Assembly: GCA_963844715.1 (NCBI GenBank)
Contig: CAWJPJ010000007.1
Span: forward strand, 992,001-1,056,000
Length of the DNA stretch: 64,000 nucleotides
Direction: 5' to 3'
Source of the DNA: an uncultured Phycisphaerales bacterium
GTDB taxonomy: Bacteria; Planctomycetota; Phycisphaerae; Tepidisphaerales; Tepidisphaeraceae
A program made the position numbers. Within the stretch, counting starts at the first letter, position 1. The number at the start of each line of letters is the position of its first letter. Below are positions 27,001-33,000 of this stretch, piece by piece.

Positions 27001-30000
27001 CTTCTCCCCCCAACAGCAGCAGACGCAGAACACCAATATTCCCAATCCCGGATTTTTCTTCCGCGGCTTCGGCGGCGGGGGCGGTGGAGGCGGCGGCGGA
27101 GGAGGATTCGGGCCGGGCGGCTTCGGCGGGGCGGCCGCGCGGCGGCGGCGCAGTCCGCCTCCCAGGACCAGGGACAAACCGGCAAAGTCACGGCATCCGC
27201 CGATACGCGGACCAATACCGTCGTCGTCAGCGGTCCCACCGACACGCTGAAAATCATCACCGACGTCCTGAGCCAACTCGACGCAAACCCCGCCGCAGAA
27301 GAAGATTTCTTCACCTACGCGGTCAACAACGGCCAGGCCGTGGACATGGCCGCGACGCTCAACGCCCTCTTCGGGGGCAGCGGAACGACGCCGAGCACTT
27401 CCAACAATCAGCGCAACCAGTACGGCACCGCCACCGGAAATCCCGTCAGCGGCAGCAACCGCAGTTCCGTCGGCGGCTTAGGCGGTGGAATCGGAACCAG
27501 CTTCGGCGGCGGAACAGGCGGCGGACTCGGGGGCTACGGCGGCGGCGGGGGGCTGGGAAGCTCCAACAGCAACCGCAACACCGGAACGAGCAGCCTGACC
27601 GCGAATCGCGGAATCTCCGGCGTCCCCGGTCTCACCGGCGGCGCGAACGGCGCCGCTGCCGAATCGGGACTCGCCCAACTCATCGGCCAGGTCTATGTCG
27701 TCCCGGATCAGGACACCAACTCGCTCCTCGTCGCCACCGCCACTAAATTTGAGCCCCAGGTCCGCGAAGTCATCGCCAAGCTCGATCGCCCCGTCCCGCA
27801 GGTGCTCATCAAGGTTCTCATCGCCGAAGTCACCCATGACAATTCCCAGGACCTCGGCGTTGATTTCTCCGGCTTGAACCTCGGGACCGGCGGGAATCTA
27901 AATACCCAAACCGGCCTCATCTCCTCGGGCCACGGCCAGGCGGGCAGCAGCATTCTGGCGCCGCCGCGGCCGCAGCAGCAGGGGCCGGCTCGACCAGCGC
28001 TCCCCCGGGAATGGTCGTAAACGTCCTGGCTAACAACCTCACCGCCACGCTCCAGGCGCTGTCCCAGCAAAATAAATTGGACGTCCTCTCGCGCCCTACA
28101 TTTTGACCAGCGACAATCAGGAAGCCGATATCACCGTCGGGAGCGAAGTCCCCTTTATCGACAACAGTTATGTCGACTCCAACGGTGGCACCCACAACAC
28201 CGTCCAATATCAGGACATCGGCATCATTCTGAGCGTGACCCCTCATATCAATCCCGAAGGCACCGTTGTCATGGAAGTCTCGCCGCAGATTTCGGCGTTG
28301 ACCGGCCAGACGGTGACCATCCAGGCGGGCGTGAACGCCCCCGTCTTCGAACTCCGCTCCGCTGATGCATATGTCGCCATCAAGGATGGACAAACCGTCG
28401 TCATCGGCGGCCTTATGCAGGACCAGAAAACCGACAACATCAGCGAGGTTCCCCTCCTCGGCGATATTCCTCTGCTCGGCAAACTTTTTCAATATCGCAC
28501 CACCAGCAAGACCAAGACCGAGTTGCTGATTTTCCTGACGCCGCATGTGGCGATGTCGCCCGGATCGCTGACCAAGATGTCCCAGGATGAAGCGAACGGT
28601 CTTAAGCTCACGCCCACGGCCGTTCAGCCCGGCGTGATGCAGGAGCAATTGGAAGGCATGGCTCGCGGATCGGCAACGCAACCGTCGATCCCGCTCCAAC
28701 TGCCCAACCCCAGCGGCTCGGGTTCCTCCTCAGGTCCGCCGTTGCCCGGCACTAAATAAATGGCAGAATGGAATCATGCGATTTGAGCTGCGTTGGGGCG
28801 GTGTTATTTCTGACGGCGGTTCTGGCCGGATGCCAGACAAAGCCCGCCGACAATCCATCCCCGTCTGGGATGGCCGCCGTCACCGACCCGTGCGCAACCC
28901 AATTGCACGACATCGCCGGCGACATCCTTTTGTATTACGCCCTCAATAAGCGCATGCCCGCCGAGTTGACCGACCTGCAAACCGTTGCCGACGCCGACAC
29001 GCCCCTTCATTTTGAATGCCCCGTCTCCGGCTTGCGCTACCTTTATTATCCGCTCGGCTTAATGTCCCCCGACGGCATGGGGGCCATCATCGTTTGTGAC
29101 CCGACGCCTGCCCACGACGGCAAACGCTGGTGTATCGTCGAGGGCGTGGCCCACGGCAAATCGCTCTCCCTCGATGTCGAAGAGCTGCCGGAGGCGATAT
29201 TCAGGCAATTCGGACCTGCCGGGGGGCAGTAATTGGATTTACTTGACAGGATTACTGAGAAACCTAAGATTGTCATCTGACAATTCGAACTGAGTAAGAG
29301 ATCTTATCCAGAGTGGCCGAGGGTCGGGCCCGTCGACGCCACAGCAACCGTTTAGCGGCTTTTGAGCCGGATATGGTGCTAAATCCCGCCCCGAATGGTC
29401 GGGGGAAGATAAGAGGAGCCCCAACGTAAACTACGCCACAGCCTCTTCTTATCGGTAAGGAGAGGTTTTTTGTTGGAGCAATTGGAACTATGAGTTACGT
29501 GGTGGGTCTTAAGTGCAAGGAGTGCGGAAATCGGATTCCGGTTTCCCCGGAACACGTCTGCAAATCCTGCTTTGGACCGTACGAAGTTGAATACGACTAC
29601 GCGAAGATGAAGGGGAAAGTCACCCGGCAATCCATCGCCGCCGGCCCTCGAAGTTTGTGGCGATACAAGGATTTACTCCCCCTGGCAGGCGCCCCGCGCA
29701 CCGGCCTGAATTCGGGGTTCACCCCGTTTCGAAAAGCCGAGCGCGCTGGGAAAAGAACTCGGCTGCTCCGATCTCTGGATCAAAGACGATTCCTGCAACT
29801 ATCCCACATACTCATACAAGGAACGTGTCGTCTCCGTCGCCATTAGCAAGGCGGTTGAGTTTGGCTTCGACACCGTGGGCTGCGCCAGCACGGGGAATCT
29901 TGCCAACAGCACCGCCGCTCATGCCGCCATGGCCGGGCTTCGCTGCTTCGTCATGATTCCCCATGATCTCGAGCAGGGCAAAGTCCTCGGCAGCCTCATC

Positions 30001-33000
30001 TTCGGGCCAACAATGGTCCGCATTCGCGGCACCTACGACGACGTCAATCGGCTTTGCACGGAGATCGCCGACAAGTACGGCTGGGCGATTGTGAACGTGA
30101 ACCTCCGCCCGTATTACACCGAAGGCGCCAAAACCTACGGCTTCGAGATCGCCGAACAGTTCGGCTGGCGCCTCCCGCAGCACACGATTGTGCCGACGGC
30201 CGGTGGAACGATTCTCCCCAAGATTTACAAGGCGTATCAGGAATTGATCGAACTCGGTTTGGTCGAGGACAACAAGCCAAAAATTTATTCCGCGCAGGCG
30301 GCGGGTTGCAACCCGGTCGTCACTGCCATCCACAAGGGCGTCGATATTATCGAACCTCAGAAGCCGAACACGATTGCCAAGAGCATCGCCATCGGAAATC
30401 CAGCCGATGGATATTATGTCTGGCACGCCGTGAAGGATTCCGGGGGCTGGGGCGAAAGCGCGACGGATCGCGAAATCGTCGACGCCATCAAGCTTCTGGC
30501 GAAGCTCGAAGGCATCTGGACGGAGCCCGCCGGCGGCACCACGCTGGCGGCGGCGATCAAGCTCATCGGCCAGGGACGTATCCCCAAAAACGAATCCATC
30601 GTCATCAGCATTACCGGAAACGGGCTGAAAACTCTGGAAACGGTCCAGAACGATCTGGTGCCACCGGAAGTGATCGAGGCGAAATTGTCGGAATTCGATA
30701 AAATCCTTTCGCGCCAGGGCGGCACGGAAATTTCTGCCAGCGTCGCGCGGTCGTCCCCGCGGGCGCCGGCGGCGGTATAATGGCGGAAGCACGAAGCGAG
30801 GTTTTTTTATGGGCGTGAAAGTCAGGATTCCCTCTCCGCTGCGGAGCTACACTCAAAACGCGGACGTCGTCGAAGTCGCCGGCGCCACCGTGGGCGAGGT
30901 GCTCAACGGTTTGAAAACCAAGGCCAGCGGCATCGAAACGCGCCTATTCAAGGGGCCGAATCAGCTCAATCGCTTCGTCAACGTTTATTTGAACGACGAG
31001 GATGTTCGGTTTTTGAAGAACCTGGATACGCCCGTGAAAGAAGGGGACGAGATCAGCATCGTGCCGGCGATCGCCGGCGGCTGAACGAGTCGTATCATGA
31101 GCGAAAGCGATTATTCCCGCCGCTGCTGGTTTACCTTCCCGACGCGCTCGCAGGTCGAGCAGCCGATCATCTGGCAGATGAGCCAAAAATTTCCCGGCGT
31201 TATATTCGATATTCGCCAGGCGAGCGTGCAAAACGAAATTGGAATCATGGCGGTATTGCTTACGGGGCCGGAGCGCGACGTCAAATCCGCCATCGAATTC
31301 GTCCGCTCCAGAGGGGTCACAGTCGAGCCGATCGAAAAAAGCGTTGTCGAGGGATAAGTCCCTCGCTTCGTCTCATCGTCTCTTAGTCTTAAGTTATCAT
31401 TTTAGAAAGAATTCATGTCTGAAGAACTACGTAATAAAATATTAGAACACATTGAGTCCGGCGAGTATCGCCCGATCAAGCCGAGCCGGTTGGCTCGGCA
31501 AATGCAAATTACCGAGGAAGATCAGTATCACGCGTTTCGCGATGCACTGAAGGAATTGATGCACGCGGGGCGCGTCGTGCTCGGGTCGGGGGGAAGCGTT
31601 ATGCTCCCCTTGCAGCCGCTCCGCGCCGCCGGAATTGTGGGCACCTATCGCCACAACCCGCGCGGGTTCGGCTTCCTCTCACCCACCGATCCCACTTCCC
31701 ACGAGGACCTTTACATCCCCGAGGGGGAAAACGGCGGCGCCATCACCGGCGACATCGTTCGCGCCACCATCACCAACAAGCATCAGCGTGATGGGAAAAC
31801 GATGTATCGCGGGCGAATCGAGGAAATCATCAGCCGCTCGCAAAAGCGGTTTGTCGGGACCCTCGGCCGCTATCACGGCAAATGGCAGGTCCTGCCCGAC
31901 GGCAACACCCTGACCGCCCCAATTCTCACACCCGACGCCGCTGCCCGACACCTCAAGGAGGGCACGCAAGTCGTTGTCGAAATCACCGAATACCCCAAGC
32001 CGGGCGTGCTCGCACAGGGCGTCATCACCGAAATCCTCGGCCGGCGCGGCGAGAAGGACGTCGATCTCAGAAGCGTCATCATCCAGTTCAATCTGCCCGA
32101 AAAATTTCCGGAAGAAGCCCTCGATGAAGGCCGCCAGGCGATCGATATCTTCAACGCCAGGCAGGAATGGCGCGATCGCGTCGACCTATCCGGCGAAACG
32201 ATCTGCACGATCGACCCGGACGACGCCAAGGATTACGACGATGCGATCAGCCTGAAAAAGCTCCCCAGCGGAAATTGGGAACTCGGCGTGCATATCGCCG
32301 ACGTTTCGCATTTTGTCCCGCCGGGCAGCGCCCTCGATACCGAGGCGCAGCTGCGCGGAAATAGCTGCTATTTCCCCGGCTACGTCATTCCGATGTTGCC
32401 CGAGGTCTTATCCAACGGCGTATGCAGCCTTCAGGAGGGCGTTCCGCGCCTTTGCAAATCCGCGTTTATTACGTTGGATGACGACGCAAATCCCGTTTCG
32501 ACGCGTTTTGCCAACACAGTGATTCGCAGCGCCAACCGCCTGCGTTATCGCGAGGCTCAAGCCATCATCGATAACGCCGATGTGATCCCGCATCCGGACG
32601 GCCCGCGCAAGCGTGACAGTTACAGCCCGCGGGTCATCGAACTTTTGAATCAAATGAACGCCCTGGCCAAACGAATTCAAAAGCGCCGCGCGGCAGAGGG
32701 GCAGTTGGTCCTCGAATTGCCCGAGGTGGAACTGGTTTTGAACGACGAAGGGAGAGTCTCCGGCGCCGAGGCCGAGGATACGAGCTTCACCCACACACTG
32801 ATTGAGATGTTCATGGTCGAGGCCAACGAAGCCGTCGCCCGAGCGCTGGACAGCGTCAACGTCCCGTTCCTGCGCCGCATTCACCCCGAGCCGGAAATGG
32901 ACGACTCGACCCGCCTTCGACAATTCGTCGAAGCCGCCGGGTATAAGATTCCCAAAATTCTGGACCGGAAAGCCCTCCAGGCGCTTCTGGCGAGCGTCAG

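Follow-up and report, generated by a model that had tools for sequence, protein, structure and literature searches.

A SAM-I riboswitch operon in a Tepidisphaeraceae planctomycete probably serves MetM/MetO-type homocysteine synthesis and carries a NIL accessory gene

What does a soil planctomycete make with a threonine-synthase paralogue that stands behind a SAM-I riboswitch, next to a sulfur carrier gene and a NIL gene? The locus lies in a window of 64,000 nucleotides, the whole stretch of DNA that was analysed, from an uncultured Phycisphaerales bacterium of the family Tepidisphaeraceae (G000, the source genome). The initial annotation described these four elements, and profile matches to PF00291, PF02597, and PF09383 behind the aptamer bear out this composition (Table 1). 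Judged from sequence, the operon very probably produces homocysteine through the MetM/MetO protein-thiocarboxylate route, with SAM switching it off; we regard it as a known pathway equipped with an uncharacterised NIL accessory.

Table 1. Features of the operon and its surroundings (positions in the window).
Feature	Position	Strand	Basis
Sigma-70-like promoter match	29243..29270	+	10/12 to consensus; consensus match only; 30 nt 5' of aptamer
SAM-I riboswitch aptamer	29301..29415	+	RF00162, 80.4 bits, E 2.5e-17
Expression platform	29408..29475	+	Intrinsic terminator hairpin 29440-29467 plus U tract; z -2.4
MetM-like enzyme, N-terminal 85 residues	29490..29744	+	CxxC...CxxC zinc ribbon; 92% to intact relative L001
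Extra base splitting the enzyme gene in the assembly	29745..29746	+	Very likely assembly error
MetM-like PLP (fold type II) putative homocysteine synthase, C-terminal 344 residues with PLP lysine	29746..30780	+	PF00291 E 1.8e-62; MetM-clade motifs; tree
MetO-like beta-grasp sulfur carrier, 91 aa	30809..31084	+	PF02597, ThiS family; ends IAGG; 51% to S. lydicamycinicus carrier
Standalone NIL (ACT-like) protein, 86 aa	31097..31357	+	PF09383; best sequence and fold matches are to the MetN C2 domain, which binds methionine
RNase R, downstream neighbour, probably outside the pathway	31415..33709	+	Present in 20/80 related loci

The aptamer, which had been reported ahead of the operon, is confirmed by a score well above the RF00162 gathering score of 44.4 bits and by a terminator/antiterminator architecture, and is the sole SAM-I match in the source genome (150 of 339 candidates scored). 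Specifically, folding indicates that the 5' arm of the terminator hairpin has an alternative partner in the 3' strand of the aptamer's P1 stem, and bound SAM would stabilise P1, let the terminator form, and stop transcription. A similar hairpin followed by a U run is seen in most folded leaders of non-actinobacterial relatives, while the two folded Streptomyces leaders show none. The sigma-70-like promoter matches are weak alone, with 2 found against 1.1 +/- 1.0 in shuffles. SAM-I elements precede the MetM-like gene at 14 of 16 loci in one set and 15 of 20 in another, and also head the actinobacterial enzyme/carrier loci (18/18 scanned); an upstream SAM riboswitch is moreover described for metM of Streptomyces albulus in the consulted portion of PMC12172450. 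The earlier proposal that the Streptomyces route extends to Planctomycetota under riboswitch control therefore stands in its taxonomic part, which Hasebe et al. (2024) may already list, but not in the novelty of riboswitch control, because the Streptomyces loci have a SAM riboswitch too.

The enzyme gene (29490-30780; PALP/TIGR00260) is divided between two frames by a single extra base, which the initial annotation had entered as a caveat. A 787-base short-read contig (run X1) is otherwise nearly identical and lacks that base; since X1 may be the source sample, this contig reveals an assembly error and not an independent occurrence. No RNA run is listed among the sequencing runs that contain the sequence. 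In all 80 related loci a single frame runs through the point where the two pieces meet, the operon is intact in the complete genome of the cultured Fontivita pretiosa (L042), and the source genome's genes for E1, the CysM-like enzyme, and HomK are likewise split. The split is very probably an artefact of assembly, and the caveat is answered.

The closest known system is MetM/MetO, with Mec and MoeZ, of S. albulus (Hasebe et al. 2024, AEM 90:e01247-24, as presented in portions of PMC12172450, of the main text and supplement S1D of PMC13759103, and of bioRxiv 2026.09.15.751699). PMC13759103 gives the UniProt accessions A0A059WBP2 and A0A059W7F4 for this system. The reference for orthology is the S. 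lydicamycinicus locus, which has the anatomy published for the system; neither S. albulus nor S. noursei is among the best 80 loci listed in either of two scans, so that orthology rests on the locus of a congener. The planctomycete enzyme is 51% identical over 385 aa to the SAM-I-led enzyme of S. lydicamycinicus, and the carrier 51% over 91 aa to a carrier that ends GGC, which meets the previous objection that direct comparison with Streptomyces MetM was missing. Conversely, the S. lydicamycinicus enzyme finds its best match in the source genome at the riboswitch-led locus, as against 26% identity to ThrC. A quick maximum-likelihood tree, computed without bootstrap, groups the planctomycete and S. 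lydicamycinicus enzymes as a single clade, with SH-aLRT 98, to the exclusion of the source genome's ThrC and the other S. lydicamycinicus paralogues; the motifs STGNLA, NxNxRPYY, and IGNPADG are common to this clade, whereas ThrC has STGNT, SVNPxR, and GNxGN. Across the 80 actinobacterial loci listed, identity is 46-52% for the enzyme and 42-51% for the carrier. A PDB sequence search returned no solved MetM structure, the best matches being threonine synthases.

Like the S. albulus system, the planctomycete one thus combines a SAM riboswitch, an orthologous threonine-synthase-like enzyme distinct from ThrC, an adjacent beta-grasp carrier with a Gly-Gly end, and a Mec-type JAB protease and an E1 encoded elsewhere in the genome. 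It differs in its extra NIL gene, absent from all 80 actinobacterial loci listed, in a carrier ending GG (GGC in 26 of 79 actinobacterial loci listed), in the intrinsic terminator of its switch, in a source of O-phosphohomoserine that is probably HomK rather than ThrB, and in its likely E1, a PRK12475-type ThiF instead of MoeZ.

Among 74 genomes of the family, the enzyme occurs in 60 and the carrier in exactly those 60; G047, first scored negative, is counted as positive, since a contig end truncates its gene. PF01053, the MetY/MetB family, is present in 14 of 14 enzyme-negative versus 22 of 60 enzyme-positive genomes, and MetX in 13 of 14 versus 12 of 60, and none of the 74 genomes lacks both the enzyme and PF01053. 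As the family genomes are kin, Fisher p values overstate the significance of these contrasts. Both MetX and PF01053 are missing from 38 of the 60, so that in 38 of the 74 genomes homocysteine would come from the operon; the 12 of 60 that keep both show that the co-occurrence formerly noted in three of four relatives is the minority case. A separate ThrC is found in 72 of 74. From the co-occurrence, the complementarity with MetX and PF01053, and the separate ThrC, homocysteine synthesis of the MetM type is therefore likely, and the operon's proposed role as homocysteine source is supported; the pair is commonly misannotated as a threonine synthase with a MoaD, which this reading corrects. The source genome agrees with its earlier description: it has a separate ThrC (contig C6) and MetH, and in its 85% complete assembly no PF01053 is found at E<=1e-40 and no MetX at E<=1e-30. 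MetA and DUF39 are not found in it either.

Genes, orthology, co-occurrence, and RNA structures are read directly, and from them we infer the pathway steps. A HomK-type phosphotransferase would provide O-phosphohomoserine: HomK is found in five of five genomes checked (four over the cut-off, split in the source genome), as is MetH, while no ThrB or ThrB-alt exceeds its cut-off in any of the five. An E1 would adenylate the Gly-Gly end of the carrier, which a persulfide donor would convert to a thiocarboxylate; the PLP enzyme would then eliminate phosphate and add the carrier sulfur at the gamma carbon. A JAB protease would trim the tails of the carrier and, if mycobacterial CysO/Mec is a guide, probably release homocysteine, to be methylated by MetH. 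The source genome has one JAB and two E1 genes, in agreement with the MoeZ/ThiF and JAB/Mec-like genes indicated before; of the two, the PRK12475-type ThiF on contig C4, beside cysM-mec-rhodanese, is the probable E1 of this carrier, with the MoeZ-like gene on C5 as the alternative. Elsewhere, enzyme, carrier, and NIL genes are joined in operons with CysM, JAB, or E1 genes, two of them near a cysteine-desulfurase-like gene; in four of five such loci with an E1 the best match is the C4 ThiF, and the two E1 genes of L078 are closer to the C5 gene. JAB genes occur in 51 of 60 enzyme-positive versus 1 of 14 enzyme-negative genomes (none found in 9 of 60 with the query used).

In Mycobacterium tuberculosis (CysO/CysM/Mec/MoeZ), a PLP enzyme receives its sulfur from a protein thiocarboxylate that a JAB protease helps to process, and in Wolinella succinogenes (HcyS/HcyF/HcyD) a protein thiocarboxylate reportedly feeds a MetY-type PLP enzyme acting on O-acetylhomoserine, again with JAB processing. 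The planctomycete PLP enzyme and substrate differ from both the O-phosphoserine-dependent CysM and the MetY-type enzyme. The same carrier may well also feed an unlinked CysM-like enzyme, whose gene occurs only with the carrier (38 of 60 enzyme-positive versus 0 of 14 genomes) and is operonic in L067 and L068.

The NIL protein matches MetN C2 weakly in sequence (E 4e-7, PDB sequence search) and in fold, MetN C2 domains being the top Foldseek matches (E 4e-5) of a structure model with pLDDT 91. It shares the NIL fold and a methionine-pathway context with MetN C2 (PMC6233128, in part) and with the NIL/ferredoxin partner of DUF39 (PMC5764234, in part). Unlike the latter it is standalone, with neither ferredoxin nor conserved Cys, and DUF39 is found in 0 of 74 family genomes (3 of 14 in control rings), which rejects the DUF39/NIL-ferredoxin pathway. 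A catalytic cysteine is likewise rejected, as Cys10 is not conserved. The column of MetN Asn295 is Asp in Phycisphaerae NIL proteins and Asn in four distant members, and that of Ile297 is an invariant Arg, so the ligand may differ from that of MetN. Far from being rare, as a count of 6 in 21 had implied, NIL is present in 50 of 60 enzyme-positive and 0 of 14 enzyme-negative genomes and lies within 4 kb in 44-45 of 80 loci. In other lineages it is often fused behind the Gly-Gly of the carrier; L071 and L329 have such natural fusions. NIL is tentatively proposed as an amino-acid-sensing regulatory subunit, a candidate that could act on either the MetM-like or the CysM-like enzyme. Gene-order breaks among relatives fall at both of its junctions, with carrier and with enzyme, and indicate no preference; likewise, a predicted complex of enzyme, carrier, and NIL scores NIL at 0.00, which, the controls not having folded, has no bearing on whether they bind. 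If NIL does act as a standalone regulator, protein-thiocarboxylate chemistry would be under a form of control that is new. The literature searched contains no description of the NIL partner or of the carrier-NIL fusion, although Hasebe et al. (2024) may list NIL.

The enzyme might instead make homocysteine from free sulfide or cysteine, with the carrier mainly serving CysM and NIL a passive passenger. Sulfide was indeed used to mimic MetM activity (PMC12172450, in part); NIL is dispensable for the chemistry, being absent from the actinobacterial loci above and from 22 of 22 named anammox loci; and carrier tails beyond Gly-Gly vary (29 of 55 short, 4 long), so that a fusion need not mean binding. 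Yet the carrier is present in each of the 60 enzyme-positive genomes, 22 of which have no CysM-like gene, and NIL, confined to enzyme-positive genomes in the family, has been conserved in several phyla (35-90% identity), which makes this alternative unlikely.

The MetM clade may not be isofunctional. A Microcystis homologue, 51.6% identical to MetM, was active as a threonine synthase and as a deaminase, and the authors of that work hold that in vivo it does not do the whole job of MetM (both from portions of PMC12172450), and a 56% homologue in Vicinamibacterales L079 sits in a threonine operon, between hom and aspartokinase, where no carrier or riboswitch was found. Together with a score above the TIGR00260 cut-off, these cases could suggest a second SAM-regulated threonine synthase or deaminase, beside a carrier for molybdopterin or thiamine synthesis. 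However, the Streptomyces orthologue passes TIGR00260 too, the ThrC active-site motifs and any grouping with ThrC are absent, the enzyme's distribution complements MetX/PF01053 and not the nearly universal ThrC, two further ThiS-family genes exist in the source genome, and there is no obvious reason why SAM should repress threonine synthesis; the idea is very improbable. Hardly credible is a carrier-dependent cysteine (O-phosphoserine) or cysteate synthase, a caveat left by the initial annotation, since the shared fold type II PLP chemistry and the carrier's association with CysM-like genes are outweighed by the lack of any cysK/cysM family match, the separate CysK and CysM-like genes of the source genome, a TIGR03844 score of 69.2 bits (intact relative) against a cut-off of 324.9, and the 38 genomes in which MetH-type methylation would lack any known supply of homocysteine.

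The main text of GapMind 2026 does not mention planctomycetes, and its six supplement files name no Planctomycetota, Phycisphaerae, Kuenenia, Brocadia, Tepidisphaeraceae, or Fontivita; the consulted portions of PMC2948915, PMC11266412, and PMC13257386 contain nothing on a MetM/MetO/NIL operon. It is conceivable, though doubtful as a whole, that MetM/MetO is a major hidden homocysteine route of many phyla, anammox bacteria included, which in many lineages has a dedicated NIL sensor giving feedback on a carrier shared by MetM and CysM, the carrier-NIL fusion being a ubiquitin-like precursor whose JAB cleavage is perhaps gated by a bound amino acid. In anammox bacteria, which Hasebe et al. (2024) may already list, the methionine pathway "remains to be elucidated" (PMC8027424, in part), and their missing methionine genes have been taken as possible dependence on neighbours (PMC6714388, in part). 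The unexpected M+1 methionine labelling of Kuenenia (PMC8027424) is not explained by the MetM route, because its carbon skeleton is the same as in the canonical route. The same SAM-I-led enzyme and carrier pair is present in anammox bacteria, and the MetM family is a testable candidate for their methionine gap.

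The operon is led by a SAM-I riboswitch scoring 80.4 bits against Rfam, the sole RNA detected in the window and the only SAM-I found in the source genome (G000) among the 150 of 339 candidates scored, and it comprises a MetM-like enzyme gene, a MetO-like carrier gene and a NIL (PF09383) gene. The 5' arm of the terminator hairpin and the 3' strand of P1 in the aptamer have complementary sequences; the full leader is predicted to fold as aptamer plus terminator, and the stretch 29401-29457 alone as an antiterminator, an arrangement that, as modelled, is the usual transcription-off SAM-I design. 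Both the Rfam score and these alternative folds bear out the riboswitch proposed in the initial annotation. The enzyme gene, whose nearest named relatives (80-93% identity) belong to the Tepidisphaeraceae/Tepidisphaerales (Phycisphaerae, Planctomycetota), carries, when compared with four relatives, one surplus base at 29745-29746. The junction of its two pieces lies in a single frame in 80/80 related loci, and the base is missing from a short-read contig of sequencing run X1 spanning 29394-30181. The extra base is present in the assembly as annotated, but the frameshift is very likely an assembly error; the E1 (ThiF/MoeZ-type carrier-activating), CysM-like and HomK (putative O-phosphohomoserine source) genes of G000 are likewise split.

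Features of the operon, of the sulfur cluster and of the anammox loci (window positions unless a contig or locus is named)
Feature	Location	Context
SAM-I riboswitch	29301-29415	Operon leader
Terminator: 12-pair hairpin + U tract	29440-29475	3' of riboswitch
Enzyme, PLP fold type II with N-terminal zinc ribbon	29490-30780	After riboswitch
Carrier, ThiS family, 91 aa, C-terminal IAGG	30809-31084	After enzyme
NIL protein, 86 aa	31097-31357	After carrier
Sulfur cluster: PRK12475-type ThiF, CysM-like, JAB/Mec, rhodanese, cysK, cysC, cysH	G000:C4:196984-201400 (related locus L301, 4980-11600)	
Anammox loci with SAM-I, MetM-like gene and carrier, no NIL	L322-L325, L352-L379	

A motif scan returned at least 120 matches, and all 80 with flanks and titles were actinobacterial. 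Their enzymes share 46-52% identity with the intact relative P0003, the carrier (42-51% identity) lies 3' of the enzyme in 79/80, and a SAM-I leader precedes all 18 loci scanned. Specifically, the Streptomyces lydicamycinicus locus (L132) matches at 51% over 385 aa for the enzyme and 51% over 91 aa for the carrier, and the top match of its enzyme in G000 is the present locus, with the G000 ThrC at 26%. In a quick maximum-likelihood tree of 65 rows, the proteins from planctomycetes and actinobacteria form one group with an SH-aLRT of 98, apart from the G000 ThrC and other Streptomyces paralogues; the active-site motifs reproduce this division. The direct comparison therefore supports the MetM/MetO assignment, orthology being judged on S. 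lydicamycinicus, as S. albulus was not among the matches listed. The 79 actinobacterial carriers end in AGG (51), AGGC (26) or otherwise (2), and the GGC ends fit the published requirement for Mec, named "MetO-L-cysteine hydrolase" in the available text of PMC13759103.

The operon thus resembles Streptomyces MetM/MetO in its SAM-I leader, its threonine-synthase-like enzyme and the adjacent carrier, and it differs in the NIL gene 3' of the carrier: NIL is absent from all 80 actinobacterial loci, whereas the same profile detects it in 44 of the 80 loci of our own set. The proposed extension of the Streptomyces route under riboswitch control stands for the planctomycete locus, but the control itself is not new, given the 18 actinobacterial leaders and the SAM riboswitch upstream of S. 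albulus metM described in the available part of PMC12172450. With its riboswitch, the operon core is a further case of a pathway that was described in 2024. What makes it a variant is the NIL partner, the joining of NIL to the carrier and a carrier that CysM probably shares, none of which appears in the literature searched (a set outside which the original 2024 MetM/MetO paper lay).

Distribution was assessed in G000 and 73 genomes of the family with a completeness of 90% or more (74 in all, among them the unpublished G035). The enzyme occurs in 59/74, or 60/74 counting G047, where a contig end cuts the gene, and the carrier is present in precisely these 60. PF01053 (MetY/MetB family) is found in 14/14 enzyme-negative versus 22/60 enzyme-positive genomes and MetX in 13/14 versus 12/60; no genome among the 74 lacks both the enzyme and PF01053, and DUF39 was found in none. 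Coexistence of metX or metY with the operon, noted initially, does occur in some relatives, but these are a minority, as 38/60 enzyme-positive genomes have neither family. A separate ThrC, given for this genome in the initial annotation and taken here as a control, is present in 72/74 genomes independently of enzyme status; the gene therefore complements the methionine rather than the threonine route. The genomes are kin, so that p values overstate significance, yet the 14 negatives cover 10 genera. In five genomes searched, MetH was found in all, in agreement with the initial annotation, as was HomK (over cut-off in four, split in G000), with no MetA and no ThrB over cut-off.

It is highly probable that the planctomycete operon would make homocysteine by the MetM/MetO route. 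That the MetM-clade protein is instead a threonine synthase/deaminase is very improbable here. According to the available text of PMC12172450, a Microcystis homologue behaved as both, and the same text gives 51.6% identity between S. albulus MetM and this cyanobacterial protein. In L079 the enzyme is part of a hom-aspartokinase operon at which neither a carrier nor a riboswitch was found, so that clade membership alone is insufficient; at the present locus the case for homocysteine rests on the riboswitch, on the carrier and on a distribution complementary to the methionine route. L079 and L080 are Vicinamibacterales loci; in L079 the MetM-clade enzyme (56%) lies between homoserine dehydrogenase and aspartokinase and has possibly reverted to threonine synthase. 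Other threonine-synthase-family proteins carry a fused LeuA allosteric domain (P0099, P0107, P0110, P0111, P0119 and P0149; 611-620 aa) or a PadR-like domain (P0104, P0118).

The MoeZ/ThiF and JAB/Mec-like genes reported for the genome were recovered as a ThiF and a JAB gene in the sulfur cluster on contig C4, which holds no carrier gene, and a MoeZ-like gene on contig C5; G000 has only three ThiS-family genes. JAB occurs in 51/60 enzyme-positive versus 1/14 enzyme-negative genomes, and the CysM-like gene in 38/60 versus 0/14, being thus confined to genomes with the carrier of the operon; moreover, in L067 and L068 it shares one operon with enzyme, carrier and NIL. From this co-occurrence and these operons, a single carrier would probably feed both the MetM-like and CysM-like enzymes. 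The E1 genes of five other planctomycete enzyme loci are 40-46% identical to the C4 ThiF versus 34-36% to the C5 gene, and those of the Omnitrophota locus L078 are closer to the C5 gene. In L078 (2095-3924), two tandem ThiF-family genes lie between carrier and NIL, followed by a Thi4-family gene.

NIL, initially counted in 6/21 loci, is far commoner, occurring in 50/60 enzyme-positive and 0/14 enzyme-negative family genomes. Among 80 relatives of the anammox-family enzyme, it is present in 37/58 loci not named as anammox, including Zetaproteobacteria, Omnitrophota, Verrucomicrobia, Planctomycetia and others, and in 18 of these 37 the two proteins are joined, NIL following the carrier Gly-Gly in the same frame. 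Further fusions with differing linkers are P0177-P0179, P0181, P0184 (DNA read) and L329; P0188 is a NIL-NIL tandem. Such fusion hides the reactive Gly-Gly, implying JAB cleavage, but carriers accept many tails (none 21, short 29, long 4, cut off 1; n=55), so that fusion by itself is no proof of binding. NIL is closest in sequence and predicted fold to the MetN C2 domain, which, in the available text of PMC6233128, binds methionine across the dimer via Asn295. It differs in having Asp in the equivalent column (Asn in four distant members), adjoined by an invariant Arg; the alignment contains no conserved Cys. A putative small-molecule sensor is the best, still tentative, reading. In the Endomicrobia locus L425 (3729-4850), a 267-aa extension follows the carrier Gly-Gly, its start resembling a ThiF/MoeB E1 by eye.

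Across the phylum, the enzyme is found in 62 of 201 evenly sampled genomes, 32/33 within one family, whose protein has named relatives in Brocadia, Jettenia, Loosdrechtia and Kuenenia (87-99%) and Anammoxibacter (73%). The carrier lies within 2.5 kb of the enzyme in 21/22 named anammox loci, NIL in 0/22, and SAM-I leads 5/6 loci scanned. Two ThrC-family genes were found in 19/19 anammox-family handles and DUF39 in none (at most 18 genomes, as two handles share identical coordinates). The available text of PMC8027424 calls the methionine pathway of K. stuttgartiensis unresolved, with none annotated, and that of PMC6714388 reports cystathionine enzymes as not found in anammox MAGs. MetM/MetO is a good candidate to fill this gap; it offers no explanation for the M+1 labelling described in the available part of PMC8027424.

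Lastly, at window position 31399, in the stretch separating NIL from RNase R, the assembly has one T fewer than short-read contigs from two runs. By eye, 21455-29232 holds a type II secretion/pseudopilin cluster, in which a GspD-like secretin is spread over several frames, and a conserved small lipoprotein gene directly 5' of the riboswitch; in 34653-36052 a toxin-antitoxin pair resembling HicAB is accompanied by an IS5-like transposase that occupies two frames, and a MiaB-like gene is split near 37000.
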